Source of the DNA: Candidatus Fraserbacteria bacterium
GTDB taxonomy: Bacteria; Bipolaricaulota; Bipolaricaulia; RBG-16-55-9
Assembly (NCBI GenBank): GCA_037442925.1
Contig: JBBIPG010000017.1
Span: forward strand, 1 to 34,283
DNA: 34,283 bases
Reading direction: 5' to 3'
The notes below the pieces were generated by a model. The model saw only the letters and a program-made list of their open reading frames with translations. It was not told the origin of the DNA and did no database searches. Of this stretch, positions 4,891 through 32,399 are shown piece by piece (the first letter of the stretch is position 1; the number at the start of each line of letters is the position of its first letter). A program made the position numbers and the translations under genes.

Positions 4891-4905
4891 GAATGCGTTC
4901 TCTCC

Positions 4906-6987: not shown

Positions 6988-7013
6988 AGCTAAGCCTTGT
7001 TGCTCATTATCTA

Positions 7014-8837: not shown

Positions 8838-8967
8838 CACAGAGTCCTCGTCCTCACTTGGGCCCTTTGTCTTAGCGCTTTTGCCGTCCTCCAGTATAGC
8901 ACCCAATCTCGCCCTTGGGGTAGGAGCACCTTGGTCCAGGGGTTTCCTGGAGAGGGCTTACAGGAGA

Positions 8968-9333: not shown

Positions 9334-9464
9334 CTTCCTCTGTTGCCTTTTTGACTGCTGAGCCCGAATGTGCTGCCATCATAGCTTGTAGCACATACTC
9401 CAGCAACCAATGCTACGATCCAGAGTCGGTATAGCGTCCAGCCGCCCTGCTAGGCCAGCAAGCA

Positions 9465-9806: not shown

Positions 9807-9809
9807 AGC

Positions 9810-10055
9810 TTACTCCTCCAGCCCATCGGCGAGGGTGCCTTCCCAAGCGGTCCGCTCTTCTTCTTCGTCGGCCCAGGCCTCCTTGTCCGCTCGTAGGGCC
9901 GCAAAAGCTACGTTGGCTTCTTTCAGGAACAACTCCCGCCGGTAGCGTTCCACCGCTTCATCCAGGAGTTCTTGAAGCTTCCTCCCGGTTTGGGAGGACA
10001 ACTTCTGTAAGGTCTCTCTGGCCTCCTGGCTGATCCGCATGGTAGTACTGGCCAT
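9810..10055 (-). CDS. Antitoxin (RHH-like) of the MazF toxin
   Basis: MASTTMRISQEARETL...ELLDEAVERYRR...WEGTLADGLEE; GAGGAGG RBS before ATG 10055; directly upstream of mazF. Confidence 0.82.
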   Translation of the reverse strand: MASTTMRISQEARETLQKLSSQTGRKLQELLDEAVERYRRELFLKEANVAFAALRADKEAWADEEEERTAWEGTLADGLEE

Positions 10056-10081
10056 CGTCTTCCTCCTCATCGTTACGAATT

Positions 10082-10110
10082 AGTTTACAAAAGAGTGACA
10101 TACTCGTCAA
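10082..10110 (-). promoter_or_regulatory. Putative sigma70 promoter of the MazEF-like module
   Basis: Minus strand TTGACG, 17-bp spacer, TAAACT. Confidence 0.55.
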
Positions 10111-10121
10111 GAGGAGGTTCC

Positions 10122-11243
10122 CTACCTGTGATTTGAGGGACCGATGGGCGCAATATGGCCTTCACTCTCCAAGTGTTGGACGATCCGCTCCGCCGCCCGG
10201 CCGTCGCCGTAAGGAGCCTCACACGTAGAGCCTGGCTGAGCTGTGCGCACGGCCCCCAAGATGCGGTCACGTTCACAGCCCACCAGCACGTTCCAGCCCG
10301 CTTCGACCGTTTCTACCCACTCCGTCTCGTCTCTTAATGTCACGCACGGCACCCGGAAGAAGAACGCTTCTTTCTGTACTCCACCCGAATCTGTCAGGAT
10401 AATCTTCGCGTTTTTCTCCAAGAGCAACATATCGAGATAGGAGGTAGGCTTGATGAGTTGCAATCGATTTGTGGACAGCCCAATGGTCTCCAACTGCTTG
10501 CGGGTTCGAGGATGCAAGGGCACAACCACGTGCAAGCCCTCTCCGGCAATCGCTTCCAGCGCTTGGAAGATGGACTTCAGCCTCCCCGCGTCATCCGTGT
10601 TCTCTGCCCGATGCACAGTCACAAGACAGTAAGCTTTGGGGTTCAGCTTGAGCTCGTCCAAGATTCCTGATCGTTTTTCTGCCAACTGCACGTTGTATAA
10701 CACGGAGTCATACATTACATCGCCCACAAGGTGGACGCCATTTGTGATTCCTTCTCGCTCGAGATTCTTCACTGCTGTCTCTGTGGGACAGAAGAGGAGA
10801 TCTGAGACGTGATCCGTGAGTACGCGATTGATCTCTTCGGGCATCTTCTTGTTGAAGCTACGCAGACCTGCTTCAACGTGGGCCACCGGGATGTGGAGCT
10901 TGGCAGCAGCTAATGCGCCTGCGAGGGTGCTATTGGTGTCTCCATGGACCATGACCAGATCGGGTTTTTCTTTTAAAAGCACTTCTTCGATGCGCTTGAG
11001 TATTTCGCCCGTCTGATCCGCATGGGTGCCGGAGCCTACGTCGAGATGATGATCCGGCGACTTCAACCCCAGCTCCTCAAAGAAGACCTGAGACATCTCG
11101 TAGTCGTAGTGCTGGCCGGTGTGCACGAGAATCTCTTGAACTGCTCGTTGGGGATACTGGCGATTGTGCTTCTCGAGGGCCCGCAAGATGGGCCCGACTT
11201 TGATGAACTGCGGTCGAGCACCGACGATATTGAGAAGTCTCAT
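10122..11243 (-). CDS. wecB: UDP-N-acetylglucosamine 2-epimerase, non-hydrolysing (WecB/WbpI-like)
   Basis: VGARPQFIK, HTGQHYD, GDTNSTLAG, HVEAGLRS, PEEINR, TDSGGVQKEA and RDETEW motifs. Confidence 0.95.
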   Translation of the reverse strand: MRLLNIVGARPQFIKVGPILRALEKHNRQYPQRAVQEILVHTGQHYDYEMSQVFFEELGLKSPDHHLDVGSGTHADQTGEILKRIEEVLLKEKPDLVMVHGDTNSTLAGALAAAKLHIPVAHVEAGLRSFNKKMPEEINRVLTDHVSDLLFCPTETAVKNLEREGITNGVHLVGDVMYDSVLYNVQLAEKRSGILDELKLNPKAYCLVTVHRAENTDDAGRLKSIFQALEAIAGEGLHVVVPLHPRTRKQLETIGLSTNRLQLIKPTSYLDMLLLEKNAKIILTDSGGVQKEAFFFRVPCVTLRDETEWVETVEAGWNVLVGCERDRILGAVRTAQPGSTCEAPYGDGRAAERIVQHLESEGHIAPIGPSNHR

Positions 11244-12373
11244 GCTCTGGCCGAAAATTCCTGAACGTTTCTGATGATATGTTCTCGCTCTTCCCCGGTC
11301 AACTCCGGGAAGATCGGCAGCGAGAGCACTTCACGACTGGCCTGCTCAGACTCTGGTAGCTGCCCTTCTTCATATCCTAGATGCCGGAAGCACGGCTGCA
11401 GATGTAACGGGAGGGGGTAGTAAACCTCCGTGGCTATGCCGCGCTCGTTCAGGAATTCCCGCAGCGCGTCACGGCGACCACCAGCCACCCGAATCGTGTA
11501 CTGATGGAAGATATGAGTTCGTTCGGAAGATCGATGGGGCACAGTAATTCCGTTGATGCCTGCCAGAAGCTCATCATAAGATGCAGCGTGTCTCTGGCGG
11601 GCACGCGTCCATTCGTCCAGATGGGCAAGCTTAACTCGGAGGACCGCGGCCTGTAAGGCATCCAAGCGAGAGTTGGTGCCCACCAGATGATGATGATATT
11701 TGGGCTTCGACCCGTGAACTCTCAGCAGGCGCACCCGCTCAGCCAGCGCGTCGTCGTTGGTGACGACAAGCCCACCATCACCGTAGGCTCCTAGATTCTT
11801 GGTGGGGAAGAAACTGAAGCAACCCAGATGCCCGATTGCACCCACGGCGCGAACGCGATATTCCGCACCGATGGCTTGGGCTGCGTCTTCAATCACCGTT
11901 AGCTCATACCGCCGAGCGATCTCTAATAGCTCGTCCATGTCAGCGGCCTGACCATAGAGATGGACCGGGATGATCGCCTTTGTCTGGGCTTGAAGCTGGG
12001 CATCGGACTCAAGCAGGTCGAGTACGTGGTTGGGGTTGACATTGAACGTCTTGGGGTCAATATCGGTGAAGACGGGCGTTGCACCGACGTGACAGACCGT
12101 CCCAGCGGTGGCGAAGAACGTGAAGCTAGGCACGATGACTCTATCTCCGGGGCCGATGCCCGCCGCTTTGAGAGAGAGCCAGAGGGCATCCGTGCCGCTG
12201 GCTACCCCGATGGCATGCCTGACGCCTACATACTGAGCGACCTCGCGCTCGAAGGCTTGGACTTCCGAGCCTAGAATAAACTGCCCCGACTCGATCACAC
12301 GCGCGATAGCGCCGTCAATCTCGTTCTTGATGGACTGATACTGACGCTGTAAGTCGAGAATGGGAATCTTCAT
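11240..12373 (-). CDS. DegT/DnrJ/EryC1/StrS aminotransferase (WbpE-like)
   Basis: [34 protein letters not shown] (PLP lysine) and NSRLD; start 12373 overlaps the upstream stop (ATGA). Confidence 0.93.
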
Positions 12374-12951
12374 AGATGGACGATTCGCCCCTTGCTCTCT
12401 TGACGATACTGACGCCCGCACTGTGCACAGTGGGCGTGCTGGTTTTGGAAGTGCAGTCTCTCGCCGCACTCGCACATCCAGCCGTGGACTCGGGCCGGGA
12501 CACCGTAGGCGATGGCATGAGCGGGTACGTCTTGGGTAACGACCGCACCAGCTCCGATGAAGGCATGCTCTCCCAGCGTCACCCCACAGATGATCGTGGC
12601 ATTGGCTCCGATAGAGCAGCCGCGCTTGACAAGAGTTTTCACAAAGCGCTCCGGTCCTTTGGAATCAGCCGCCCGTGGATTTAGATCATTCGTGAAGACC
12701 ATCGAAGGACCACAGAAAACATGCTCTTCCAGCGTGACGCCCTCATAGACCGAGACGTTATTCTGAATCTTGCATCCCTCCCCAATGACGACATTGCGCC
12801 CGATGAAGACATTCTGCCCGATGGTGCAGTTCTTGCCGATCCGGGCGCCGTTCATGATGTGACAGAAGTGCCAAATCTTCGTGCCTGTGCCGACAACCAC
12901 ATTCTCGTCCACGTACGAGGACTCGTGCACGAAATAACCCTGCTCACTCAT
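12370..12951 (-). CDS. Hexapeptide-repeat N-acetyltransferase (WbpD-like)
   Basis: [36 protein letters not shown] and GVPAR, with a C-terminal CxC...CxxC; start 12951 overlaps the upstream stop (ATGA). Confidence 0.92.
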
Positions 12952-13955
12952 GGTGTACCGACCTCTTCCAACATGACAGGCGCTCCGTGGGAGTCGATTG
13001 ATCGTTGCGCCGCTTCCAGGACGCGCAATACTCTCAAGCCATCGCGCCCGTCGCTGCGCGGCGGCTCTCCCCGCTGCATACAAGAGAGGAAATGCTCACA
13101 AGCAGCTCGCAACGGTTCGCGGGCTGGAAGGGGCACGACTTGAGCGCCCTCATCGTGCGGCAGAAAAGCGTTATGAGCTCTTGCCATGTATTTCTTGAAG
13201 AGCAGCAACTTCTGCGAGGCCGTATCGTCAAAGATCGCCATTCTCTGGCTGCCGATAACCACCAGCTTGCGGGCTTTCCGGGGGTCGAGCCAACTGACGT
13301 GCAGATGCGCGCGCACGCTGTGTGCGAACTCCAACATCACGAGAGCCATATCGTCAATGGCATCTTGTAAATAACGAGCACCGTGAGCCCACACGCACTG
13401 AGGTTCTTTCCCCAATAGGTGCAGCACAACAGAGATATCGTGGGGGGCTAGGCTCCACAGGGCGTTCTCTTCCGTGCGAACGATTCCCAAATTGAGCCGC
13501 TCACTGTAGAGGTAAAAGATCTCTCCTAGCGCTCCTTGCTGGATGGAACGTCTCAGCTGCTCGATAGCGGGGTGATACTCCAATAGGTGATCCACCATGA
13601 GCACGCGCTGTTCTCGTTCTGCCAGATCGATCAGGTCTTGGGCCTCAGAGCAGTGCATGGCGATAGGCTTCTCGACAAAGACATGCTTGCCGGCAGAGAG
13701 GGACTGGCGGGCCAAAGCGTAATGTGTGACAACAGGCGTGGCGATGACCACGGCTTCTACGTGAGAATCGTTCAATACAGCGGAGAGATCCGAGGTGATG
13801 CTCACGTCAGGGTAGTGGGATCGAAGTCCTTGAAGACGGTGGGCGTCGATGTCACAGGCAATGACGTGCTCTTCGTCTAGGAGGGCGCAGAAGCTTCTGA
13901 GAAGATTCCTGCCCCAATTGCCCACACCGACGACGGCCAGCTTCTTCTTATTCAT
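12948..13955 (-). CDS. Gfo/Idh/MocA oxidoreductase (WbpB-like UDP-GlcNAcA 3-dehydrogenase)
   Basis: GVGNWG Rossmann motif, [23 protein letters not shown] and VSWLDP. Confidence 0.9.
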
Positions 13956-15261
13956 GGAGGGCTCCCAATCGGAAGATATGGGGGGCCGACAAGCCGCTGA
14001 GCGCGTTGCGCGTGTCGTAGATGAGCGGGCCATGCTGGACGACCAGACTGTAATCAACGCTCGAGTGCTCGGTCGTTATAATGACGAGATCTGACTGCTT
14101 CAAGATCTCGGCGGTCAAGGGGATCGACGAATACTCTTGGTCTGCGATCCAGCAGCGCGGGATATGTGGATCATGATAAGAAAGCCGGGCGCCCCATTGG
14201 AGAAGATTCTGTGCCACCTTAAGCGCCGGAGACTCGCGCAGGTCATCCACGTCTTTCTTGTAAGCGATGCCCAATAGTAGCACGCATGCACCGTGGAGGC
14301 ATTTCTTATGTCGGTTGAGAATCTCAGCAGCCTGAGCGACGACATACTCGGGCATGGAGTTATTGATTTCGCCAGCTAATTCAATGAAGCGGGTACTGAA
14401 ATCATATTCTTTGGCTTTCCAGAGAAGATAGAAGGGATCGACGCCGATGCAATGGCCACCGATTCCCGGCCCAGGATAGAAGGGCATGAACCCAAAAGGT
14501 TTGGTCTTGGCGGCTTCGATAACTTCCCAGATGTCAATTCCCATGCGGTCACAGAGCATGGCCAGCTCATTGACTAAGGAGACGTTCACGATACGAAACG
14601 TATTCTCCAAGAGTTTGCTCATCTCAGCGACGCGTGGGGAAGAAACTGCCAAGACTTTCTCTTGGATGATCGCTTCGTAAAGAGATTTGGCAAGCTCCGT
14701 GCAGCGGGGGGTGACGCCGCCTACGACCTTGGGCGTGTTCTTGACGTTGAAGTGGCGGTTGCCAGGATCCACGCGCTCGGGTGAAAAGGCTAGATAGAAA
14801 TCCTTACCGACCTCGAAGCCGCGGCTCTCAATCCGAGGTAAAATGACTTCTTCCGTTGTCCCCGGATAGGTCGTGCTCTCCAGCACCATAAGCTGCTGTT
14901 CTCTCAAGTGCGGCAGACTTTGATCGACGACGTATTCGATATACGTCGTATCGGGATTCTTGTTCTTGTCCAAGGGGGTCGGCACACAGATCGTAATCAC
15001 ATCGACATTCGCGATGGCATCGAACGTCTGAGTGGCCTGCAGCCTCCCACGCTGGACCACCTCCTCAAGATCGAGATTGATCACGTCAGGAATGTAATTC
15101 TTGCCCCGATTGACCATCTGGACACGCCTAGGGTTGCGCTCGATGCCGATCACTGCGAAGCCGACTTTGGCCTTTTCGACAGCCAAGGGCAGGCCGACAT
15201 ATCCCAGGCCAATGACGGCGATCACAGCCTTCCTATTTTGAATCTTTTCAAGTAAGTCCAT
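13948..15261 (-). CDS. UDP-N-acetyl-hexosamine 6-dehydrogenase (WbpA/WecC/TviB family)
   Basis: IGLGYVGLP, ICVPTP, ESTTYPGTT, SPERVDPG, KLLENTFR, GIGGHCI and YKKDVDDLRESP motifs. Confidence 0.95.
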   Translation of the reverse strand: MDLLEKIQNRKAVIAVIGLGYVGLPLAVEKAKVGFAVIGIERNPRRVQMVNRGKNYIPDVINLDLEEVVQRGRLQATQTFDAIANVDVITICVPTPLDKNKNPDTTYIEYVVDQSLPHLREQQLMVLESTTYPGTTEEVILPRIESRGFEVGKDFYLAFSPERVDPGNRHFNVKNTPKVVGGVTPRCTELAKSLYEAIIQEKVLAVSSPRVAEMSKLLENTFRIVNVSLVNELAMLCDRMGIDIWEVIEAAKTKPFGFMPFYPGPGIGGHCIGVDPFYLLWKAKEYDFSTRFIELAGEINNSMPEYVVAQAAEILNRHKKCLHGACVLLLGIAYKKDVDDLRESPALKVAQNLLQWGARLSYHDPHIPRCWIADQEYSSIPLTAEILKQSDLVIITTEHSSVDYSLVVQHGPLIYDTRNALSGLSAPHIFRLGALHE

Positions 15262-15283
15262 GCCTATTTGTGTAAGGGATCTG

Positions 15284-16069
15284 TTACATATACCCCAGCG
15301 CTCGAAGCCGCTCCATCACACCCTCTTTGTCCTGTTCGCGTCCTGCGCGCTCTCCGATCCCCAGCTTCTGCTCCCACGCCGGACGGTCATCTGTCTTGGC
15401 TCCTTCGATGGAGTCCAACGATCTGTACCCCTGAGCATAGAGAGGATGCATGGGTAAGCCCTCTCTTAACATTACATTCCAGATGTCCTGCTCCGTCAAG
15501 GGCAAGATGGGATGCACACGGGTGTGCGGCGGGTCCTCCCGGAAAGATACGAATTGCTCTTGGGCGCGAGCCGGATGCTCATCCCAGCGAATCCCCACAA
15601 AGACATAATCAAAGCCATGTGCGCGAATGGCCTGCTTGAGCGCGACGGTCTTCAAGAGATGATTTCCCGCGGGCGTATCCAGCGTATACGGGAATGTCTC
15701 ATCACAGTAGCCCAAGACTTCTCGTAATTCTCGCTGATTCTCTTCGTTTAAGTCATCCACGCAAATGGGTTCATCAAGCTTGCAAGCGTGCGCGAGAACG
15801 TCCTCGTTGCGGGCGATGAGCAGATCGAGCTTCCATTGTGCCTTGACTTGATCGATTAGCCTCCAAGTCTCAGGGAAATGGAGCCCATGGTCGATCAAGA
15901 GAGTGGGGATCGTCTTTGAGCTTGCTTGGCGGACGAGCCACAAGAGTACCGTGGAGTCCTTGCCCCCTGTGTAGAGAACCACAGGACGCTTGGCTTGCCT
16001 CAGCGATTGGGCGATAACACTTCGGGCGTGGGTGAGTTTTTCGGCTAGCGATGACGAAGATAACTGCAT
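15284..16069 (-). CDS. PAPS-reductase-superfamily protein, most like sulfate adenylyltransferase subunit 2 (CysD-like)
   Basis: PP-loop TGGKDS, GIRWDE, RVHPIL, HPLYAQGYRSL and C-terminal ERAGREQDKEGVMERLRALGYM; lacks the ECGLH motif of CysH. Confidence 0.75.
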   Translation of the reverse strand: MQLSSSSLAEKLTHARSVIAQSLRQAKRPVVLYTGGKDSTVLLWLVRQASSKTIPTLLIDHGLHFPETWRLIDQVKAQWKLDLLIARNEDVLAHACKLDEPICVDDLNEENQRELREVLGYCDETFPYTLDTPAGNHLLKTVALKQAIRAHGFDYVFVGIRWDEHPARAQEQFVSFREDPPHTRVHPILPLTEQDIWNVMLREGLPMHPLYAQGYRSLDSIEGAKTDDRPAWEQKLGIGERAGREQDKEGVMERLRALGYM

Positions 16070-16193: not shown

Positions 16194-17528
16194 TCACTCC
16201 AGCAGATTCCCCCCCTCGAACTCGTGGGGGATCGTAAGCCCCATGAGTGCAAAGATCGTGGGTGCCACATCCAAGATCGATGGCTGCTTATTGGCCATCT
16301 CGTGCAGCTTGTGTCCCCGCACGTAAACGAGGGCTTCTTCATACGTATGCATCCCCGTGCGAGCTGTGCGCTGGAATAGTCCTTCATTGCCTATGCCAGC
16401 CTTCAGGTCATACCCATTTTGGGGGTGAGCGATGAGTTCCGCCGCTTGAGAGAGGAGTGGCCCCTGATAGATCTCCGCGCGCGTGTAGACCCGCTGGATT
16501 ACAGGATCACCGCTCTCGGGGCCCTTAAGTTCGTAGAGCGCGTCTTTGAGTTCATCCAGCAGCTGTGGAGCATCTTGGGGGTCCACGCTTCCGCCCGTCT
16601 CACGACCCTTCAGGTTGAGATAGATCCGCCCCGGCGTGAGACTATAGGCGACGGAGGACGGATCGAGATCGCTCAGGCTCTGAGCCGCTTTCTTAAAGCG
16701 AAGATACCCCAATTCTGTCAAGTAGCGGTTGAGGTCGACTTCGTAGCGAATATCGCAGAAGCCGTGATCGGAGAGGATCATCAACTGCGTGTCGTCATCG
16801 AGCGTGTCCGCCACTTGCCCGATCAATTCATCTACTCTTGTGTAAAACTCGCAGAAGTCACGATGGCGGGGATGCAAAGTGTCATCTTTGGCATCCCAGA
16901 AGAAGTGATTCATGCGATCGGTCTCCATGATGTGAAGCATGAAGAAATCCCACTCTTGTTCTTCCAAGAGCCGAAAGGCCAGCTTGCCGCGTGCGCGGAG
17001 TGCTTGGAAGATCTCTGCTAGGAAAGCAGTCTGATCACGGTGGGCCAGCCAGGGCTCCGCATCGACGAGGTAGTTGAGTGATTTGAGCAGGGGCACCAGC
17101 GACGCGGGGTAGGTTGCCTTCTCTACAGTCGGGCTAAGAAAATCTCCGATGAGGATGCCCTCGATGGAATCGGGCGGGTACGTTCCAGGCACATTGATGG
17201 CAATGACACGCTTTTGACGTTCGTTCAGGCGCCTCCAGAGGCTCTGTGCCCGAAGGCGTGAAGAGGTGACCACAATGGGATGAAGCTCTGGGTCCCGATC
17301 GGTGAAGCCAAAGATGCCGTGCTTCGCTGGATTGACACCCGTTGAGAACGTAGCCCAAGCAACAGAGGAGATCACAGGGAGAACGGAATTCATCTTCATG
17401 AGAGATCCCTGCCTGATCAAGCGCTGGAAGTGAGGCATCTGCCCCTTCTGACAAGCCTCTTGTACGAAAGAATAGGGTACGCCGTCAATGCCGAGTACGA
17501 AGAGTCGTTTGTCTCTTAGTGTTGTCAT
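16194..17528 (-). CDS. Alkaline phosphatase superfamily protein (type I phosphodiesterase/nucleotide pyrophosphatase family)
   Basis: LGIDGV, SSVAWATFSTG, ETDRMNH, SDHGF, TGMH and ILDVAPTI; start 17528 overlaps the upstream stop (ATGA). Confidence 0.88.
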   Translation of the reverse strand: MTTLRDKRLFVLGIDGVPYSFVQEACQKGQMPHFQRLIRQGSLMKMNSVLPVISSVAWATFSTGVNPAKHGIFGFTDRDPELHPIVVTSSRLRAQSLWRRLNERQKRVIAINVPGTYPPDSIEGILIGDFLSPTVEKATYPASLVPLLKSLNYLVDAEPWLAHRDQTAFLAEIFQALRARGKLAFRLLEEQEWDFFMLHIMETDRMNHFFWDAKDDTLHPRHRDFCEFYTRVDELIGQVADTLDDDTQLMILSDHGFCDIRYEVDLNRYLTELGYLRFKKAAQSLSDLDPSSVAYSLTPGRIYLNLKGRETGGSVDPQDAPQLLDELKDALYELKGPESGDPVIQRVYTRAEIYQGPLLSQAAELIAHPQNGYDLKAGIGNEGLFQRTARTGMHTYEEALVYVRGHKLHEMANKQPSILDVAPTIFALMGLTIPHEFEGGNLLE

Positions 17529-18478
17529 GCTGGCACATCCTTTACCGGAAGATGAGTTTCGTATACCTGAGCCAAGCATAAAGCCAGCTTGAGGGAGGCT
17601 TCGAGATTCCGGGTTGTTACGTGTTCGATGTTGAGTCCTAGAGGTACAGATATCCCCTCGTTCTCCACGAATTCCATAAGTTCTCTAAGAATCTGTTCGG
17701 CCACTTGGGTGGATCGCTCCCCAATTCCGGACTTTTCTCTCAAGATGAAACGCTCGAATTCAGAAGGGATCTCCACTCCCCACCATCGGAGAAAGCGTAC
17801 GTCGGATTCTGACGAGACGGGAGCGAAACTCAGAAAAATCCTCTTTGGCTCCACACGGAGTTCTCGACAACGCTCCTGATAATCTCTGAGTAGTTTCTTC
17901 ATGTGCGCCGCTTCGTAGATCACTTGGCTGATGAAAAACGCGATCCCACTTCTCGCCTTCTCAATGAGGCGCTCGGGCTCGTTGGGGCGGGTAGGGATCG
18001 TGATTCCTCCCAGAAAAAAATCCCCAAAGATAAAAGAACGCCCGATGAGTCGGGCTGCTTCCGCCACCGAGGGACCGGGATAACGAACCCGGCTCGAATC
18101 TCCTCCCACCAACACAAGATTTCGAATGCGATAGTCCCGCCAAGTCTTCATGAGCCACTGTCGTTGGTTGGCCCAGTGGGTGTACACGATGCCGCGATCC
18201 ACAATCACCTCCCCTCGATGATCAAAACGCTCCTGAATGAGGCGAGCAAAAGACCGAGGCTCCATCTTTGGCGTGAAGGGAGTCACTCGAGGATTTCGAG
18301 TCTCCGGGCGCACTTCCGGGATGTTGATCGCCACCACAGGGAGATCATATATGAGCCCTTGCATGCTTTCCAGGCGTGCCTCGATCTCTGCTTGTGGCGC
18401 ACCCGCGGGCGGCGGGACGATCGTATAGATCACGAGCTGCTGCCAAGGATCTTCCATCTTTAACCGGAAGGAATTCAT
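17525..18478 (-). CDS. Methylenetetrahydrofolate reductase-like protein (divergent MetF/MTHFR fold)
   Basis: INIPEV, LVLVGGD, GGITIPTR..EPERLIEK..GIAFFISQVIY and LSFAP..DVRFLRW.GV resemble the MTHFR fold; ATGA-coupled to ribH. Confidence 0.6.
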   Translation of the reverse strand: MNSFRLKMEDPWQQLVIYTIVPPPAGAPQAEIEARLESMQGLIYDLPVVAINIPEVRPETRNPRVTPFTPKMEPRSFARLIQERFDHRGEVIVDRGIVYTHWANQRQWLMKTWRDYRIRNLVLVGGDSSRVRYPGPSVAEAARLIGRSFIFGDFFLGGITIPTRPNEPERLIEKARSGIAFFISQVIYEAAHMKKLLRDYQERCRELRVEPKRIFLSFAPVSSESDVRFLRWWGVEIPSEFERFILREKSGIGERSTQVAEQILRELMEFVENEGISVPLGLNIEHVTTRNLEASLKLALCLAQVYETHLPVKDVPA

Positions 18479-22549: not shown

Positions 22550-23010
22550 ATGAGCAGATCAAGCAGGCCGTCGAGCAATACTTTCGCGGGTTACTCACCG
22601 TGCTGGGTGAGACGGCGGAGATCCAGTACAAGAAGGAAGGAGAGAATGAGCTTTTCATCAACCTTCAGGGGGTTAGCACGTTCGATGGACTCGACGCGAA
22701 GCTCCTTAGAGCCCTAAGTTATCTCGCCGAGATTGCGATGCGACGTCGGTTAGGAACCGGCATTCGGATTCACCTCGACATCAACAATCAACGGGCCAAG
22801 AGGCTGGCAGAGATCCAGCAGCTGGCTCGTCGGTTGGCGGACGAAGCCGTGCGAGAATCGAAGAAGATTCAGCTCGATCCCATGGAGACCTACGAGCGCA
22901 AGGCTATCCATGAGGCGCTGAGCGGCTATGAGGGAGTCCGCACGTACAGTGAAGGCAGGGGCGCCGAGCGCCGCGTGGTCATTGAGCCCGTCCGTCCATC
23001 TGACTCTTAG
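22546..23010 (+). CDS. jag: Jag/EloR (KhpB)-like RNA-binding protein, short form (KH-like + R3H)
   Basis: LDPMETYERKAIHEAL...TYSEGRGAERRVVI is an R3H domain; ATGA-coupled to yidC. Confidence 0.85.
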   Translation: MNEQIKQAVEQYFRGLLTVLGETAEIQYKKEGENELFINLQGVSTFDGLDAKLLRALSYLAEIAMRRRLGTGIRIHLDINNQRAKRLAEIQQLARRLADEAVRESKKIQLDPMETYERKAIHEALSGYEGVRTYSEGRGAERRVVIEPVRPSDS

Positions 23011-24068
23011 TCCCAGGGGAGAACCCACTTCCAGAACGGGCCGCGGAAGTACGTCCCGATAATGATGAGCAAGACGAATAGTAGCATAGAGAGCGTAAAG
23101 ACCGCCACAGTCATGGGGCGCTCTCGGAGGCGTCGGCCCACCGGAGCACTTCGATCGGATCTCCAGAACTCCAAGTAAGGCTCAATGTACGGGATCGCAA
23201 GCAAGAACAGAACAAACAGTCCAGGCAGGATCACTCCGCCTAGGGCGATCGAATTTAAAAACCCACCCAAGTTGGGAGAAATAGCTAGAAGCTCTTGAAT
23301 ACCCAAGAAATACCAAGGTGCCTTCTCCGGGTTGGGCGTGAAAGCCGGCGTGGCAGCTTGTTCCAAGGGCGCATCCACAAGCAGGGCGTAGATGCTTAAA
23401 CCGCCTAGCAAGAAGAAGAAGATGGTCGTAATCACATAGAGGAAATAGGGGTACGTCAGGATCTCTTCTTTCTCTGTCTCTTGGGCGGGGATGCGCTTGG
23501 AGAAGACCTGGAGCATCATCTCTACGGTCTTCTCGGTGAAGGGGTACTGCGACGGGATCTCTTTCACTCGGTCTTGTTCTAGAGTATAGCGGAGCAGATC
23601 GCTCAGCACTCGAAAGTCTTCTGGATCTCCGCCTCCGTCCACCAGAGCCGGAGCGCGTCGGCGCAGGTCTTTCAGGCGCTTGAGTGTAATAGCCTGAGCG
23701 GAGTGAACCTCTGCCAGCGGCACATGCTCCGCGCAATAATCGAGTAGATCTGCCAGTAAGCCAGGGTGGATCTCGAGCGCCTCGGCGACCTCGTAGCCGG
23801 GGACTTCGAGCTCGAGATCCTCTGTAACAGCCATCTGACACGAGAGCCGCCACTTCTTCTCGATCTTGTCTTTGAGCAAGTCCTTTTCATTGGCGTTGGG
23901 CTCTCCGCCGCCCTTCAGCACGCGCACCGCACACGTAGAGCACGTTCCTCGTCCACCGCAGGTGGCCGGAAGATTGCGGTCATACTTCTTCTCTTGAATG
24001 AATTTCAAAAGATTCGTGCCTGCAGCAACCTCGAAATCCTGTTGGCCGAGAATCGTGACCTTAGGCAT
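23007..24068 (-). CDS. Fusion: NqrF-like [2Fe-2S] ferredoxin domain, helical linker, cytochrome b subunit IV (PetD/QcrC-like)
   Basis: CGGRGTCSTC...RLSCQ ([2Fe-2S]); C-terminal TYPYFL, DAPLE, PNPEKAPWYFLGIQELL (Qo-loop equivalent), LAIPYIE and GTYFRGP.W with 3 TM segments. Confidence 0.85.
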   Translation of the reverse strand: MPKVTILGQQDFEVAAGTNLLKFIQEKKYDRNLPATCGGRGTCSTCAVRVLKGGGEPNANEKDLLKDKIEKKWRLSCQMAVTEDLELEVPGYEVAEALEIHPGLLADLLDYCAEHVPLAEVHSAQAITLKRLKDLRRRAPALVDGGGDPEDFRVLSDLLRYTLEQDRVKEIPSQYPFTEKTVEMMLQVFSKRIPAQETEKEEILTYPYFLYVITTIFFFLLGGLSIYALLVDAPLEQAATPAFTPNPEKAPWYFLGIQELLAISPNLGGFLNSIALGGVILPGLFVLFLLAIPYIEPYLEFWRSDRSAPVGRRLRERPMTVAVFTLSMLLFVLLIIIGTYFRGPFWKWVLPWD

Positions 24069-24074: not shown

Positions 24075-24989
24075 TCACCTTGCCCCTTCTGACCCGCGGG
24101 CGATCTCTTGTAGCTTCTGGTTCACAGCGCGTCCTCCGGGCAAACAGCGCGTGGGCGGGGCTTTCCCTTGAGCAAGCGCTTGAGCATACTCTTCACAAGT
24201 GAGATATCCGCAGGCCTCACAATCGAAACCGGGCAACACCGCACGGAGCGCGCGGGCTTTCTCAGTCAGTAGGCCTCTCGCCGGTGCAGGCCAGCGAATC
24301 ACCAAGGGCTTGAAGAGTTCAATCGCAAGATCGCTCTCCACGGGCACTTGACAAGCGAGAAAGATCGGAAGAGCACGCTGCCGGGGGGTTAATATGGGGC
24401 CATAGTGCTTCTCTTCCCAATTCTCGGCTCCTTCGCGCACCCTCACACGACAACTGGCGCACGATCCCTGACGGCCGCATTGGGTGATCAAGCGATAGCC
24501 CGCATCCTCCAGCACTGTAAGCAGCAGTGTCCCTTTTTGAGAAGCGAGTACGCTTCCATCGTTGGCGATGGCGACGAAATGGCGGGGCCGAGCAGTCTCG
24601 CGAACTCGCTCTGCGGCATAGAGGGCTACCAGAGCAAAGCCCCCCAGTAGTAAGGGCTGCATGAGGTTCGGAATATGAGCGAAGCCCCATAAGCTCAAGG
24701 CCAAAATGAGAAGCAATACAACAGTAATCCCCAAATAGCCTTGAGCGCGGAGTATCTGAGGTATATCCGCCACGGACAATCGTTCGTGAGTGGCTTCGAT
24801 GGCCTGCACGAGCAGCTGACAGACGAGCCCACCCAGAACAATCCCCACGATGATCGTGTCCAGACGTAGCTGCCAGAGGAGCGAGAGCAGGATGATCCCA
24901 ACGAGGGCCATTCCAGCAAGCATGAGCGCCAACCCGCGCGTGAGGCGCACCTCTCGCTGCCAACGGGCACGCCGTTGTTGAACGCTCAT
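24075..24989 (-). CDS. Membrane protein with a [2Fe-2S] ferredoxin domain and a C-terminal RnfB-type FeS domain
   Basis: About 4 N-terminal hydrophobic helices; CGRQGSCASC...LACQ; LPGFDCEACGYLTCEEYAQAL...RCLPGG. Start 24989 has a GGAGG RBS and an ATGA overlap. Confidence 0.82.
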   Translation of the reverse strand: MSVQQRRARWQREVRLTRGLALMLAGMALVGIILLSLLWQLRLDTIIVGIVLGGLVCQLLVQAIEATHERLSVADIPQILRAQGYLGITVVLLLILALSLWGFAHIPNLMQPLLLGGFALVALYAAERVRETARPRHFVAIANDGSVLASQKGTLLLTVLEDAGYRLITQCGRQGSCASCRVRVREGAENWEEKHYGPILTPRQRALPIFLACQVPVESDLAIELFKPLVIRWPAPARGLLTEKARALRAVLPGFDCEACGYLTCEEYAQALAQGKAPPTRCLPGGRAVNQKLQEIARGSEGAR

Positions 24990-26011
24990 GCGCGACCTCC
25001 ATAGCTCTTGGGCAGGGTCCACCTATCGATGAGGGGGACGAATAAGTTCATGAGCAATACAGAGAATGTGACGCCTTCTGGATCGGGAGTCAGTGCCCGT
25101 AGGATCAGTATGAGCAATCCAATCGCGATCGCGTAGATCCACTTGCCCCAGGCAGTCATGGGACTTGTGACGGGATCTGTGGCAATAAAGAAGGCTGTCA
25201 AGAGCGTGCTTCCGGCAAGCACGTGAATCAGCCAGCCTCCTCGAAACACCGTGGGAAAGAACATCTCCAGCAATGACTGGCCGATGGCAATAGTTGCGAG
25301 CATCACGATGGAGATGCGCCAGTCGATAGCGCGAGTCAAGAGTAGCCAGCCTCCCGCGAGCAGCAGCAAGAGTCCCGACGTTGCCCCCATGGCTCCGGGG
25401 GCATTGCCTATAAACAATTCTCCCAGCGGCGGTGTCGGTTGGTTCTGAAGCGCAGCCACGAGAGGTGTGATGGTGGTCGTCACGTCCGCAGGCGGTGCCC
25501 ACTCTACGAATCCTCCTGATCCACCCCAGAAAGGCTGCGAGAATTGGCTCATGAACACGGGAAAGAGGACGAGTAAGAATGCCTTGCCGACCAGGGCGGG
25601 ATGAAAGACGTTGTATCCCAGCCCGCCGAAGAGTTCTCGGGATAACATGGCAGCGGCCGCACCCAGAGCCACGATCCACAATGGAAGGTTCGGGGGCAGG
25701 AGGAGAGTGTATAAAAGAGCGAGTATGAGCAAACCTTCGGTGGGCGGACGTCGTCGGATGAAACTGAAGGCCAATTGCACAACTCCTCCCGCGATCACGG
25801 CAACGAGAAAGACGGCCAGAACGTGCCATCCAAAGAGATAGATCGCGCCTGCCGTCGCAGGCAACACGGCCAGAAGAGGCATGAGCATATAGCGTTGAAT
25901 GCTGACCCCATCTCGCAGGTAGGGCGCGCTCGAGGCAGAGAGATCACTCCCACCGTAGAGAAGATCACTCAGGCTCTGGCGGAGGATGGGTCTAGATACT
26001 CTGTGATTCAT
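24986..26011 (-). CDS. rnfD: RnfD/NqrB family membrane flavoprotein
   Basis: APYLRD, TEG, LFGGLGYNVFHPALVG, DVTTTITPL (FMN-Thr site), ATDPVTSP and PEGV..LLMN..PLID. Confidence 0.88.
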   Translation of the reverse strand: MNHRVSRPILRQSLSDLLYGGSDLSASSAPYLRDGVSIQRYMLMPLLAVLPATAGAIYLFGWHVLAVFLVAVIAGGVVQLAFSFIRRRPPTEGLLILALLYTLLLPPNLPLWIVALGAAAAMLSRELFGGLGYNVFHPALVGKAFLLVLFPVFMSQFSQPFWGGSGGFVEWAPPADVTTTITPLVAALQNQPTPPLGELFIGNAPGAMGATSGLLLLLAGGWLLLTRAIDWRISIVMLATIAIGQSLLEMFFPTVFRGGWLIHVLAGSTLLTAFFIATDPVTSPMTAWGKWIYAIAIGLLILILRALTPDPEGVTFSVLLMNLFVPLIDRWTLPKSYGGRA

Positions 26012-27432
26012 GATTCGAGTCGCTCCTCACGAATGGCCCGCTTGCCCTTCTGGATCTCGTCCATTACGGAGATCTTGGAGGGGCAGACGTAGCTACAGAG
26101 CCCACACTCAACGCAAGCGAAGATATCGAGTTCTTCAGCTCGCCGGAGATCGCCTTGGTGCGCGGCCTCCGCGATCCAAATTGGGAGTAGATTCTGCGGG
26201 CAGACTTCGACGCAATACCCGCAGTGAACGCAGGGACGTGGCGTGCCGTTCAAGCCCGTCGTAGCTACCCGTGGACCTCCCAGCAGAGGGGGAATGATGC
26301 GCGTATACGAATCGTGTCTCAACCCCGGCCGAGCGCCTCCGAAAAGTTTCTTAGTGGGTTCACGCAGCACAACGAGCGCACGTGTGTCGCGCAGAATGGG
26401 TGTGTTCATGTCGTTGACGGCTATTCCTCTCATGGGGCCACCCAGAAGGTTTCTAGAAGGCGTTTCGTGACCAAACTCACGAAGTAGATCTCCGATGGGC
26501 GTGCCAATGCGCACCCGCGCGTTGACCGGACGGCGGACGGCTGAGCCGCCTAGTGAAATTACGCGCTCGATGAGAGCCTTCCCTTCGAGCACCGCCTCGT
26601 AGGCCGCGAGGACTTGCTGCACATCGCAGACGACTGCTCCGATGGCCGTAGCATGCTTTCCAGATGGAACGTCCAGATTGAGCAGTGTCTTGACGAGAAC
26701 TTCATCTTCTCCCTGCGGGTATTTCGGCAGAAGGGGATGTATGTAAAGCCAGTCGTGGTAGTCCATGCGGTTCTCTAGTTCTTCGAGGAGGCGAGGCTGA
26801 TCGTAGCCGATGCCCACGTGCGCATCGACGTTGCCCAGTGCGCTCTTGAGAATCTTGATGCCCGTGACGAATCCCTCAAATTCCTCATAGAGAAGAGCCA
26901 GATCTCCCCGTAGATAGGGTTCTGTCTCCACGGCGTTGATCAGGAGATACTTCATCTTGCCGGGATCGACATCGGAAGAGCGATACGCTGTGGGGAAACC
27001 CGCCTTGCCCAGAGCTGTGACACCCGCCTCGTACAGTATGCGCCCCAGCTCGTCAGCTCCCCAACGCTCGAAGTTGCCCTTGGGCAGCTTCAAGTACGTC
27101 CATTCATCCCGGCCGTCGGATTCGATCGTCACATATGTCGTAATGGCTTGGCTCAGGGGATGAGCCCCCTCATCGATGGCTGTGACTTTCCCGGAGATCG
27201 GAGCATGGACAGGCGTTGAGATCATCTCATCCGAGCAGGCGATGATCTGTCCGGCCTTGACTCGATCACCCACGGCCACCAGCGAAGCGGTCTCTGAACC
27301 AAAGCCCTGCCGCAGCGGAATCTTGACTCGGGTTGGGACCGGTACTGACACGATGCGTGTGCTGGGGGTGCCCTCAAAGCGGCTGAAGTAGTGACCGCCT
27401 TTGAAGGTCTTGAGCGTGCCGACGATGGCCAT
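26008..27432 (-). CDS. rnfC: RnfC/NqrA-like subunit with two [4Fe-4S] motifs
   Basis: FKGGH, VGDRVKAGQ, HAPISG, AGVTALGKAGFPT, INAVETEPY, KYPQG, RIGTP, GGPMRG, CVHCGYCVEVCP and CVECGLCSYVCPS. Confidence 0.88.
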   Translation of the reverse strand: MAIVGTLKTFKGGHYFSRFEGTPSTRIVSVPVPTRVKIPLRQGFGSETASLVAVGDRVKAGQIIACSDEMISTPVHAPISGKVTAIDEGAHPLSQAITTYVTIESDGRDEWTYLKLPKGNFERWGADELGRILYEAGVTALGKAGFPTAYRSSDVDPGKMKYLLINAVETEPYLRGDLALLYEEFEGFVTGIKILKSALGNVDAHVGIGYDQPRLLEELENRMDYHDWLYIHPLLPKYPQGEDEVLVKTLLNLDVPSGKHATAIGAVVCDVQQVLAAYEAVLEGKALIERVISLGGSAVRRPVNARVRIGTPIGDLLREFGHETPSRNLLGGPMRGIAVNDMNTPILRDTRALVVLREPTKKLFGGARPGLRHDSYTRIIPPLLGGPRVATTGLNGTPRPCVHCGYCVEVCPQNLLPIWIAEAAHQGDLRRAEELDIFACVECGLCSYVCPSKISVMDEIQKGKRAIREERLES

Positions 27433-28211
27433 CAGCTGCGCCCCTCCTCGGGCGGCACGCTGAAGTCGTCTTTGCGGATCCGCCAGAAGTGGATGGCGAT
27501 CAAGAGCACAATCAAGACCGGCAAGAGGAAGACGTGGATCACATACCAGCGAATGAGCGAGAACTGATTGAGATTATTGCAGTTGCTCACGCCCAGAAGC
27601 CCCTGTCGAACTTCTTCCCCCACAAAGGGGACGTTTTGCGCGATGTTGCAGGCGATCTTGGCAGCGTAGTACCCCAACTGATCCCAAGGCAGAATATAGC
27701 CGGAGAAGGCGAAGAAGATCGTGATCAAAAAGAGCAAGACGCCGATGATCCAGTTGAACTCCCTGGGTTTTTGGTAGGCTCCGGTGTAGAAGACGCGCAG
27801 CATGTGGAAGAAGACGACGGCCACCATCAGCTCGCCGGCCCACTTGTGCAGGTTTCTAAAATAGCGTCCCAGCGAGACTTGATTCATGATGTAGCGGATC
27901 GTGTCGAAGGCCCGCTCCACCGAGGGCACGTAATAGAACATCAAGTAGATACCAGACACGACTAAGATCACAAAGAGCCAGAAAGCCGTCACGCCCATCC
28001 AGAGCCAGCTGTAGCTCATGCGCATGGATTTCTTGTTGATCGTGGCCGGCAGGACGTGCACGAAGAAGTTGCGGCGGTTCATGGCCAGATAGTCTGTTTC
28101 TGTCTGTGGGAGGTGCTCTCGGCGGAAGATGGAGATCCAGAGTCTGCTGCGGCGTAGCCGCTGCATGGTGAGCACGAGCTTATCGATGATCCCGTAGAAG
28201 AGCAGGTTCAT
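27432..28211 (-). CDS. Cytochrome b, N-terminal half (cytochrome b6/QcrB-like)
   Basis: MFYYVPS, RNLHKWAGELMV..FFHMLRVFYTGAY..PREFNW, GYILPWDQ and RWYVIH...AIHFWRIRK; all four heme-ligating His are present. Confidence 0.93.
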   Translation of the reverse strand: MNLLFYGIIDKLVLTMQRLRRSRLWISIFRREHLPQTETDYLAMNRRNFFVHVLPATINKKSMRMSYSWLWMGVTAFWLFVILVVSGIYLMFYYVPSVERAFDTIRYIMNQVSLGRYFRNLHKWAGELMVAVVFFHMLRVFYTGAYQKPREFNWIIGVLLFLITIFFAFSGYILPWDQLGYYAAKIACNIAQNVPFVGEEVRQGLLGVSNCNNLNQFSLIRWYVIHVFLLPVLIVLLIAIHFWRIRKDDFSVPPEEGRS

Positions 28212-28215
28212 GTCA

Positions 28216-28848
28216 TCATCCTCGGCAGGGGACGCAATCGCTGCCGTCGGGTAGCGGTCCCTCTACCATGGCTCGCTTGTCGGGATCGAGATAGAGATTA
28301 TGGCCGACGCCCTCGCCTGTCTTGCGGCTTAACTCATCCGTGAGATTGACAATGCTCTTGTCCACTTGGAGGCGTCCATCGGCGGTGAGCTCGATCTGAT
28401 AGAAAGGGAGCGGTCGCGGGGCAGGTCCTCCCAGCACGCGACCATCTCGGGCGAATCTGCTTCCGTGGCAGGGGCAGTAGGCATGAACGGTGGGATATTC
28501 TGGATTGGGTGGTCCGAAGGGCTTATAAGAACACCCCAAATGCGTACAGATGGCGGAGACGGCCTGAAAGCCTTGGGGGCTGCGAAAGATATACACTTGT
28601 TTGGCCTCTAAGAGCCTCATGTCTCCCACTTGATAATCTTGGGGTCGGCCGATGGTGAAGACCGTCGAGGGCTCGTAGTTCATCTTAGGCAAGATGAATG
28701 AGATGATGCTGGTGAAGACTCCACCAAGCGAGAGTGCGAAAGCGCCCAATCCGAGGCGGGCAAAGAATTTTCGCCGTGTGATGTGGCGCGCTTGGGGCGA
28801 CTCCCCAAACTCAGCGACATCTCGGCCATCACGTCCTAGCTTCCGCAT
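28216..28848 (-). CDS. Rieske [2Fe-2S] protein of a Rieske/cytochrome b complex (Tat-exported)
   Basis: Twin-arginine motif TRRKFF plus a TM helix; CTHLGC and CPCHGSRF boxes; GPAPRPL. Confidence 0.93.
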   Translation of the reverse strand: MRKLGRDGRDVAEFGESPQARHITRRKFFARLGLGAFALSLGGVFTSIISFILPKMNYEPSTVFTIGRPQDYQVGDMRLLEAKQVYIFRSPQGFQAVSAICTHLGCSYKPFGPPNPEYPTVHAYCPCHGSRFARDGRVLGGPAPRPLPFYQIELTADGRLQVDKSIVNLTDELSRKTGEGVGHNLYLDPDKRAMVEGPLPDGSDCVPCRG

Positions 28849-28953: not shown

Positions 28954-28982
28954 ATTATAGCTGTGACGAAAGAAGAGGTCAA
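28954..28982 (-). promoter_or_regulatory. Putative sigma70 promoter of the Rieske/cytb-Rnf operon
   Basis: Minus strand TTGACC, 17-bp spacer, TATAAT, about 105 bp upstream of the Rieske start. Confidence 0.7.
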
Positions 28983-30617: not shown

Positions 30618-30730
30618 CCATCCAGGTGGGGTCCTGGCGCTTAGGGCAAGCGCGATCAAGAAAAGACACCCATCAAAAGAGGAAGGCAAGATACGAAGCG
30701 AAAACAGGCAGGCAAAAGGAGGAGGTTGGC

Positions 30731-31846
30731 ATGTGCCACAAAATTCGTTCATTCTTCTGGCTCGTAGCACTGGCGTTTGTCGTAGGGGTGTGGACGAGTC
30801 AAACCGCCGTTCAGGCACAGCAGGTCATCGATATCTGCGAAGCAATCGACACCTCAAGCAGTATCAGCAATAATCAACTGGCTCTTGAGATTCAAGGGTT
30901 CAAAGCCGCCCTCAACCAAGTACTGCTGCCGGCCGCCGAGGCAGGATCGACGATACGCTTGGCGATTGTAGGGTTTAGTACCAATGTGCAGACCTTCCTC
31001 CCTCTGACACTCGTGAACTCGGCGAACAGGGCCGCCATCGAGGCAGCCCTGGATGCCGTGCAGAACACGACGGATCGCCGATTGACGAATATGGGAGGAG
31101 CCATCAACCAATGCGTCAGCCTCTTGTCTGCAAACACCGTACCTCGGCGAGTGATTGACCTCTCCACGGACGGTCGACCGACGACGGGACCATCCACCAC
31201 GACTGCGGCCACAAACGCCAAAAATGCTGGCATAGAACTTTGGACGATGGGCATAAGCCCCAGCGCAGATAATACTTTGCTAAGCCAAATCGCCGGCTGT
31301 CCGCCTGCCAGCCCCAATTGCGGGGCCAAGAACTTTCCCGTGGCGACCTTCAATGACTTCGCACAAGCCGTCAGAGAGAAGCTGGAACTGATCACCAATG
31401 GCGGTGTCCAGCAGCCACCAATCGCTGTGGCAGATAGTACGAGCACCCAACCTGGCACACCCGTCGTGATCTCCGTGCGCAACAATGACTCTGATCCAAA
31501 CGCTGATCCTCTTACGATCACCAACGTCACTCAACCCGCCAACGGCACGGTGGTCATCAACCCCGACGGCACCGTGACGTACACGCCGAGAAGCGGCTTC
31601 ATCGGCACGGACACTTTCACATACACGATCAGCGACGGTAGGGGTGGAACGGCGACCGCGACTGTCACAGTCTTCGTAGGCGTCAGTCCGCCGGGCCCGC
31701 CAGGACCGGGACCAGGGCCTGGGCCAGGTCCTGTGGGCATCCCGGATCTCTCGACGTCTGGCTATCTGCTTTTGATGATCTTGTTCTCGCTGTTGCTCGT
31801 GAGAGAACTCTATAAGCGTGGCGCGCGTTCTCGCACGGACTCGTAG
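30731..31846 (+). CDS. Secreted VWA-domain + Ig/cadherin-like protein with Pro-Gly linker and IPTL-CTERM-like sorting signal
   Basis: Signal peptide; MIDAS DTSSS...T...STDG; PIAVAD..NDSDP..GTVTYTP..GTDTFTYTISDG; (GP)n; IPDLSTSG + TM + basic tail; AGGAGG RBS. Confidence 0.88.
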   Translation: MCHKIRSFFWLVALAFVVGVWTSQTAVQAQQVIDICEAIDTSSSISNNQLALEIQGFKAALNQVLLPAAEAGSTIRLAIVGFSTNVQTFLPLTLVNSANRAAIEAALDAVQNTTDRRLTNMGGAINQCVSLLSANTVPRRVIDLSTDGRPTTGPSTTTAATNAKNAGIELWTMGISPSADNTLLSQIAGCPPASPNCGAKNFPVATFNDFAQAVREKLELITNGGVQQPPIAVADSTSTQPGTPVVISVRNNDSDPNADPLTITNVTQPANGTVVINPDGTVTYTPRSGFIGTDTFTYTISDGRGGTATATVTVFVGVSPPGPPGPGPGPGPGPVGIPDLSTSGYLLLMILFSLLLVRELYKRGARSRTDS

Positions 31847-31880
31847 AACAAGAAAGAAAGAAAAAGAGAACGGGGGAGGG

Positions 31881-32399
31881 ATGCGCAAGCACGCAGCCAG
31901 CAACTCTCTTGCGATCTGGGGTCTTGCGGTCAAATCTCTGCTCGTCTTTGCGGGGACGTTGGCTCTGGCTATCACCTTTCTCCTTAGCCCTATCAGTCGG
32001 GCGTTGCGAACCCAGCTGGAAGTGATTCTTGCGCAGACAACGGGCACATTTCTGAGTTGGTTCGATCCTTCCGTGGCGATTCTTGGCTCTACGGTGAGAA
32101 TCAACGACTTCTCTGCCGAGATCATCCCGGCCTGCACCGGCCTATTCACCACATCTATTTATATTGCTGCCGTGCTCGCTTATCCGAGCAGATGGAAGGG
32201 TAAGCTTCTGGGAGTTGCGCTCGGAGTCTTTGGCATTTTGGCCCTCAACTGGATTCGCATTGTGAGTCTCTTGCTGGTTGGGGCATACTATCGGCCGGTA
32301 TTTGAATTTGCGCATCTATTTGTCTGGCGATCCCTCGTCATCTTCGCTGCGGCGCTTCTGTGGCTCTACTGGGTCAAACGCTTCACCCATGCGACGTAG
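31881..32399 (+). CDS. xrtH: Exosortase H-like transpeptidase (exosortase/archaeosortase family)
   Basis: Catalytic-type residues in IIPACTG (Cys), LNWIRI (Arg) and FAHLFVW (His); multi-TM; directly downstream of an IPTL-CTERM-like substrate. Confidence 0.8.
   Translation: MRKHAASNSLAIWGLAVKSLLVFAGTLALAITFLLSPISRALRTQLEVILAQTTGTFLSWFDPSVAILGSTVRINDFSAEIIPACTGLFTTSIYIAAVLAYPSRWKGKLLGVALGVFGILALNWIRIVSLLLVGAYYRPVFEFAHLFVWRSLVIFAAALLWLYWVKRFTHAT

Follow-up and report, generated by a model that had tools for sequence, protein, structure and literature searches.

How are electrons passed on from an Rnf-type NADH module that stands beside a Rieske/cytochrome b complex, and what does a subunit with a multi-helix anchor, a [2Fe-2S] domain and an RnfB-type FeS domain contribute? 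The question is raised by a locus in Candidatus Fraserbacteria (assembly GCA_037442925.1, here genome G000), within a stretch of 34,283 nucleotides of contig JBBIPG010000017.1, the whole of which is called the window below. Six genes run on its reverse strand with overlaps or gaps of at most 6 bases, and the gene under study is the fifth. In the direction of transcription the locus comprises:

28954..28982, reverse strand: sigma70-like promoter match (11/12), about 105 bases 5' of the Rieske gene
28216..28848, reverse strand: Rieske protein with a twin-Arg-like N-terminus and both cluster boxes
27432..28211, reverse strand: cytochrome b6-type subunit, four heme His kept
26008..27432, reverse strand: RnfC with FMN/NAD domain and two 4Fe-4S motifs, above the TIGR01945 cut-off
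24986..26011, reverse strand: RnfD with a degenerate flavinylation motif; Asp279 (Asp248 of C. tetanomorphum) kept
24075..24989, reverse strand: very probable RnfA'-B' fusion gene, open reading frame of 304 aa
23007..24068, reverse strand: [2Fe-2S] ferredoxin-PetD/ExtQ-like cytochrome b subunit IV, APWY in place of PEWY

The hallmarks of a Rieske/cytochrome b complex are present: Rieske boxes, the four heme His and a subunit IV with a PEWY-like motif. In b6f-type complexes Cys35 of cytochrome b6 is the heme cn Cys; at this position, placed by alignment with 1VF5, all 23 aligned sequences carry a Trp. The promoter is a consensus match only, three such matches being found against 2.4 expected.

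The fifth gene has GGAGG directly 5' of its ATG at 24989. Pfam assigned residues 149-217 to Fer2 (E 7e-10) and residues 252-284 to FeS (PF04060, E 1e-11) and found nothing else in the protein, neither a Fer4 repeat nor an FAD/NAD domain. The NCBIfam models of RnfB (TIGR01944; residues 248-296, 46.1 bits, cut-off 68.7) and NqrF (TIGR01941; residues 141-225, 38.6 bits, cut-off 295) match in part and below their cut-offs. The two cluster domains are located as follows:

24339..24545, reverse strand: NqrF/RACo-like [2Fe-2S] domain (Cys171, 177, 180 and 213)
24138..24236, reverse strand: FeS domain (PF04060) of the RnfB FdI type, predicted to bind [4Fe-4S] (Cys257, 260, 265 and 282)

The Cys spacing of the former is Cx5Cx2C...C, as opposed to the plant-type Cx4; the FdI-type domain is described for RnfB in the available part of PMC9588780. 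All eight Cys are invariant in the 27 aligned sequences (the query and 26 matches; the near-identical P0002 was omitted), drawn from 27 homologues found by a protein search in which 7999 candidates were scored. Twenty-five of the aligned sequences have a multi-helix anchor and two a single TM; both Cys motifs are intact in 27/27 fused proteins, down to about 40% identity, and the frames are open in all ten full-length genome matches of the family. A search of the ESM Atlas with the protein gave no usable match. The AlphaFold2 model (pLDDT 80.4, pTM 0.63) places two compact domains behind four long N-terminal helices (3-38, 43-73, 85-105 and 110-133). Only three segments (20-38, 46-64 and 86-104) pass a Kyte-Doolittle threshold of 1.6, but the fourth helix aligns with the TM anchor of NqrF; the anchor therefore likely consists of four TM, of which the fourth is the weakest.

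Pfam, the model and the alignment thus agree with the first-pass annotation, which had placed the FeS domain at the C-terminus behind a [2Fe-2S] domain and a multi-helix anchor and had noted that ferredoxin-type [4Fe-4S] repeats and FAD/NAD domains are absent. The absence of the polyferredoxin repeats is real but not peculiar to this protein, as RnfB of T. maritima has only FdI (PMC9588780, available part).

A short part of the gene appears to be an artefact:

24362..24374, forward strand: adapter-like stretch in the fusion gene, in frame, about 5 codons

This 13-mer, which resembles an Illumina adapter, occurs twice in the window against 0.01 matches expected. Compared with a contig from run X1, possibly the source sample, the window shows 11 differences inside 24362-24374 and only two others over 1101 bases, and residues ~206-210 of the window protein are therefore regarded as an assembly error. 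No Cys of the protein is touched. The second copy lies at 6168-6180, likewise inside a gene, and the assembly (2.07 Mb) contains nine in all, so that short spurious peptides may be present in further G000 proteins.

The remainder of the window holds genes of other kinds. A polysaccharide biosynthesis and export cluster extends over 1996-16069 on the reverse strand, and the stretch 7001-9000, with a GC content of 0.42-0.45 against ~0.55, holds a CsaB-like pyruvyl transferase. A gene with a weak MTHFR match (E 0.002) at 17525-18478 (reverse strand) lies downstream of ribE-ribBA-ribH, which were named by inspection. At 30626-32399 (forward strand) a VWA and Big_9 surface protein with a C-terminal TM tail is directly followed by an XrtH-like exosortase (92.7 bits, cut-off 86); the two are likely a dedicated target-sortase pair.

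The first-pass annotation had missed the origin of the multi-helix anchor. Profile comparison traced it to RnfA:

24672..24893, reverse strand: RnfA C-terminal remnant, residues 33-106 corresponding to RnfA 121-191
24876..24932, reverse strand: TM1, residues 20-38, predicted in the same orientation as RnfA TM4, without the RnfA Cys
24591..24662, reverse strand: TM4, residues 110-133, occupying the place of the single B'/NqrF anchor

An alignment of the fused proteins matched RnfA 121-191 in hhalign with a probability of 95.7% (E 9.4e-9). The profile-profile comparison of the anchor with RnfA gave 96.9%, the RnfE, RnfG and RnfD controls staying below 1%. The remnant spans the end of TM4, TM5, the cytoplasmic loop and TM6 of RnfA, that is the C-terminal third, and is devoid of Cys. 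PF02508 does not match the fusion protein, which is missing RnfA TM1-3 and both cluster Cys; the metal ligands of the solved complex are RnfA Cys25 and Cys113 (PMC9588780, available part). None of the 27 fused proteins has a conserved Cys in the anchor, and the TM4 Cys of RnfA is without counterpart. In structure searches RnfA was not among the matches listed for the anchor, folded there as part of a longer chain. A novel four-helix unit is ruled out by the RnfA match. The RnfG anchor was also considered as the source of TM1, and its match was not significant (probabilities 2.8% and 0.9%).

The origin of the remaining part became apparent from the operons of relatives. In Bipolaricaulota the full operon has nine genes in the order Rieske-cytochrome b-rnfCDGEA-B'-ferredoxin/PetD, and the subunit at the rnfB position consists of one TM, an NqrF-like [2Fe-2S] domain and FdI in one or two copies. 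In three loci the extra ~2.1 kb between rnfD and the one-TM gene are rnfG, rnfE and rnfA. The nine-gene order was found in 10 of 33 loci and the six-gene order in seven of them plus the window, the remainder being cut by contig ends or variant; these loci come from 32 genomes. All genomes compared in this work are incomplete MAGs, and kin among them are not independent. In G052, a genome outside the order to which the window genome belongs, the RnfA sequence lies unfused directly upstream of a one-TM B', and the full form is therefore likely the ancestor. Together with the RnfA match, the one-TM B' at the rnfB position indicates that the protein is very probably the RnfA TM4 end, TM5 and TM6 fused to B', in a reduced Rnf. 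The earlier description as a rearranged RnfB/NqrF chimera thus holds for the domain order; the rearrangement is not a fresh shuffle, because the order TM-[2Fe-2S]-FeS already exists in the relatives' one-TM subunit, and what is particular here is the RnfA'-B' fusion in an operon without G, E and A.

This architecture is narrowly distributed and not common in unrelated contexts. Among 185,579 species genomes 43 loci were found (a set that overlaps the 33 loci above, so that the counts are not additive), 32 of which match in the FeS domain only; the 11 that match beyond it belong to Bipolaricaulota/Acetothermia/Fraserbacteria (9) and uncultured Thermotogae (2). When 1.84 billion representatives were searched with a profile built from one-TM and soluble forms, 10 matches had E<=1e-30, eight of which cover both FeS domains. 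Thereafter E drops to 6e-21, and in the other 140 matches listed the best stretch covers one domain. A separate search with 88 matches listed agrees. The conserved Cys and the restricted distribution support the proposal that the protein is an electron-relay subunit of unusual architecture.

Variants of the cassette were observed in several genomes. In G073 (L074:7400-8774) it is divided into two genes, an RnfA-remnant-[2Fe-2S] protein followed by a soluble [2Fe-2S]-FeS protein, with a duplicated [2Fe-2S] domain; P0084 is the unsplit form. Ferredoxin and PetD are separate ORFs in both G098 and G099 (L087/L088). B'-type proteins with TM and [2Fe-2S] but no FeS domain are L078 (G094), P0088, P0094 and P0096; the one in G094 follows rnfC-D-G, with rnfE-A on another contig. 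In G095 (L075:6358-7341), G096 and G097 (L076 and L077 being the other two loci) the [2Fe-2S]-FeS cassette forms the front part of a fusion with a NuoC-like domain; the operon encodes a Mrp/Nuo-like membrane complex and lies beside NiFe-hydrogenase-like genes.

The operon of the window is reduced in more than the fusion. RnfG, RnfE, RnfA and ApbE gave no match in G000, which is 94% complete. Among the 35 genomes of the order, PF02508 is present in 20, PF04205 (FMN_bind) in 20 and ApbE in 19, and none of the three occurs in the 11 fusion-bearing genomes (G000, eight members of its family, G072 and G073). G089 and G095-G097 are also without RnfA/E, and the reduced operon was not seen in them. 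RnfD has changed as well: the motif DxxxxATPL occurs in 0/10 reduced forms versus 17/18 full forms, the eighteenth being cut by a contig end. The flavinylation-acceptor Thr is still aligned in eight of the ten reduced forms, and the Asn flanking the riboflavin is replaced by His in six, the window included. DP[VA]TS is kept in all reduced (10) and full (18) forms, as is the Asp248-equivalent. At an RnfC identity of 50-55%, RnfD identity is 43% in eight reduced pairs versus 53% in 20 full pairs, the pairs not being independent. Electrons in Rnf cross the membrane via RnfAE, RnfG and the FMN of RnfD (PMC12174285, accessible part), a path that cannot run here in the absence of G, E and A. With rnfG, rnfE, an intact rnfA and apbE not found and the RnfD motif degenerate, the normal Rnf electron path and the pumping core are concluded to be missing. 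Elsewhere in the genome an RnfC/PrdC-like FMN-domain protein of 362 aa is encoded outside any rnf operon (G000:C5 21870-22955).

The long branches of the anchor and the relaxed RnfD would be expected if the operon were a decaying Rnf relic without a current role. This explanation is very improbable, as the Cys motifs are intact in 27/27 sequences, the frames are open in 10/10 and the fusion has been retained across two families plus G073.

How often the fusion arose was addressed with trees. In the RnfC, cytochrome b and Rieske tree G073 groups with full-operon genomes (100/100), and a single reduced clade is rejected (AU p 3e-9 in a topology test without the gappy G092). For the soluble part of the fusion one origin is not rejected (p 0.36), and the anchor tree of 73 columns unites both fused groups, on a long branch (100/99; p 0.12 for the alternative). 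The trees are compatible with two independent fusions as well as with one fusion later transferred. The [2Fe-2S] domains fall into two well-supported clades, one for the fusion family and one for PetD, and neither NqrF nor FNR-type nor long (~600-650 aa) proteins emerge as a supported sister; the fusion-family clade (96/90) gave AU p values of 0.37 with NqrF and FNR-type sequences and 0.30 with the PetD ferredoxin. Of the two paralogous [2Fe-2S] domains claimed earlier for the operon, the second one (in 23007-24068) is confirmed; the phylogeny against NqrF proposed at the same time neither establishes nor rejects a sister relation of the two domains by duplication (AU p 0.30) or an origin from NqrF (AU p 0.37).

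The fusion protein is likely tethered to the membrane as a carrier that takes single electrons from the NADH site of RnfC and hands them to the ferredoxin-PetD/cytochrome b complex encoded beside it; we put the probability of this reading at roughly 0.55. The nine-gene form would be ancestral, with G, E and most of A deleted. The RnfA remnant would keep the FeS arm docked on RnfD, which would now mainly anchor RnfC; in the solved Rnf, RnfD holds RnfC (PMC9588780, available part). Electrons from NADH would pass the FMN and 4Fe-4S clusters of RnfC, enter the FeS and [2Fe-2S] clusters of the fusion and continue from this arm to the [2Fe-2S] cluster on PetD, and from there to heme bH and quinone at the inner site. 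The usual Rieske/Qo turnover would then feed cytochrome c oxidase. The fusion arm could also accept electrons from reduced ferredoxin. Rnf-type ion pumping would not take place, and it would be the cytochrome b cycle that conserves energy. The direction from NADH to cytochrome b rests on the usual redox potentials.

Complex prediction weakly supports the docking, with 0.57 for the anchor and RnfD versus 0.00 for the best control, at least 84% contact agreement between runs and a partner pLDDT of at least 73. Of 157 solved pairs 116 reach the mark applied, as do 2 of 215 mismatched pairs, and passes at 0.60 or under comprise only 18 solved pairs and both mismatched ones; as Rnf structures are solved, the pass may also reflect likeness to them. 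Co-occurrence is consistent with the wiring to cytochrome b: all 27 of the 184 phylum genomes that have ferredoxin-PetD also have a B'/fusion match (E<=1.4e-62), and the B'/fusion family is found without ferredoxin-PetD in six. G086 (90% complete) has a full Rnf with no Rieske, cytochrome b or PetD at the locus and neither a cytochrome b nor COX1 in the genome; COX1 is present in 27 of the 35 genomes of the order. Against this wiring stand the RnfD acceptor Thr that most reduced forms still align, the separation of ferredoxin from PetD in G098 and G099, the split cassette of G073 and five other cytochrome b genes in G000. A respiratory island of this genome (L161, G000:C19 9000-29000) contains three Rieske/cytochrome b pairs, several multiheme cytochromes, DOMON proteins and a molybdopterin/NrfD module. 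As to the quinone, MqnA/D of the futalosine pathway were found in none of the 35 genomes of the order despite their Rieske/cytochrome b genes and oxidases. A UbiA-family gene lies near a polyprenyl synthetase in G000 (L165).

The same gene order and co-occurrence would fit a flow in the opposite direction, in which the low-potential electron of quinol bifurcation passes from cytochrome b via the PetD ferredoxin and the fusion to NAD+ at RnfC. In anammox Rieske/cytochrome b complexes, NAD(P)H modules have been proposed to operate like this. For the usual b hemes a transfer to NAD+ would be uphill in potential and would run against the membrane potential, which makes this direction quite unlikely.

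Equally improbable is a membrane-tethered, non-pumping ferredoxin:NAD+ oxidoreductase, short-circuited between fusion and RnfC, with the Rieske and cytochrome b genes merely co-transcribed. RnfB touches RnfC on the cytoplasmic side of the solved Rnf (PMC9588780, available part), RnfC keeps its cofactor motifs, and G086 and G094 have the Rnf half by itself. These stand-alone cases, however, carry RnfG/E/A, and no reduced locus is without ferredoxin-PetD beside the fusion. The energy gap between ferredoxin and NAD would moreover be wasted, and the PetD ferredoxin would be left partnerless.

The main rival, itself unlikely, is that RnfC-RnfD-A'B' is a substitute NADH input for a headless complex I, one without NuoEFG, with the arm reaching NuoI/B. 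NuoA is present in 10 of the 11 reduced genomes versus five of the 20 genomes that bear RnfA/E, NuoD-grade matches occur in all 11, and G000 has nuoA-B-H and nuoC-D-I without adjacent nuoEFG. Since the same Fer2-FeS cassette is in addition fused to a NuoC-like subunit in G095-G097, complex I has to be taken as a real rival acceptor. Its genes, however, are unlinked to the fusion operon, while the fusion directly adjoins ferredoxin-PetD in every intact locus; the NuoA correlation represents at most two or three independent lineages, and a NuoEF pair is encoded in G000 next to a formate dehydrogenase-like gene. A headless complex I can, besides, take ferredoxin directly. The gene set nuoA-B-H-(J-K-L-M-N) was seen apart from nuoC-D-I in L172 (G000:C80), G000:C50 3204-5498 and L173-L177, and nuoEFG was adjacent to neither set in the reduced-Rnf genomes inspected. 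NDH2_C had no match in G000, with a model that also misses its E. coli control.

If the relay to cytochrome b is correct, the six proteins may form a machine of the type NADH(ferredoxin):quinone:cytochrome c, with an Rnf NADH module placed on the inner face of a Rieske/cytochrome b complex by two tethered [2Fe-2S] arms, the RnfA remnant serving as clamp. This fuller picture, with living intermediates (the full pump beside bc, the pump by itself, the gutted pump beside bc) and possibly a twofold evolution within one order, is tentative and falls a little short of even odds. Wired in this manner, the assembly would be a new entry of NADH or ferredoxin electrons into a Q-cycle and a natural series of how respiratory complexes recombine. 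The one-TM B' is a natural NqrF/RnfB hybrid and bears on the question of Nqr arising from Rnf. For annotation, rnfC and rnfD alone should not earn these genomes an ion-pumping Rnf.

An operon-like cluster rnfCDGEAB + Rieske + cytochrome b has been reported for Ca. Acetothermum autotrophicum (OP4C155-0162; Takami 2012, PMC3267732). The accessible part of that paper treats it as a standard rnfCDGEAB pump and mentions no [2Fe-2S]-bearing B subunit, ferredoxin-PetD or reduced form. The RnfA-B fusion and the reduced operon were likewise not described in the literature searched, subscription papers being mostly beyond reach, and are unmentioned in the available parts of PMC9586279, PMC6037941 and PMC7327174. 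We regard the protein as a conserved, lineage-restricted RnfA'-B' fusion whose parts are known, while the respiratory assembly around it is possibly new.

Among known systems, RnfB (TIGR01944; PDB 7ZC6_B, 8AHX_B and 9ERI_B) shares the FdI-type FeS domain (E 1e-9 to 7ZC6_B), and the one-TM orthologues in the full operons of relatives occupy its place after rnfA. In RnfB a single N-terminal TM directly precedes FdI and 2x[4Fe-4S] repeats follow, whereas the fusion has four helices and a [2Fe-2S] domain before FdI, an RnfA remnant in front and none of these repeats. RnfA/NqrE (PF02508) have six TM and two Cys for a membrane [2Fe-2S] cluster, and only the C-terminal third is kept. The N-terminus of NqrF (PDB 7XK3_F and 8A1T_F), the best match in sequence and Foldseek searches, shares the TM followed by a Cx5Cx2C [2Fe-2S] domain; the structural match is Z 11.9 with an rmsd of 7.5 over 128 residues, RACo (3ZYY) is matched equally well (Z 12.8, rmsd 2.0 over 93 residues), and the FAD/NAD domains of NqrF are absent from the fusion. 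Rnf/Nqr reviews regard RnfADEG as the invariant core and the input and output modules as swappable (PMC12174285, accessible part); here, the peripheral modules stand without that core, next to a Rieske/cytochrome b complex. The closest parallels on that side are split Rieske/cytochrome b complexes with cytoplasmic input, which share the split b6 and subunit IV and a redox module on the cytoplasmic side. Cytoplasmic electron input is known from cyclic flow through b6f and from anammox bc complexes with an NAD(P)H oxidoreductase. In contrast to these, the input module described here is derived from RnfC/RnfD, its FeS arms are covalently tethered and a Trp occupies the position of the heme cn Cys.
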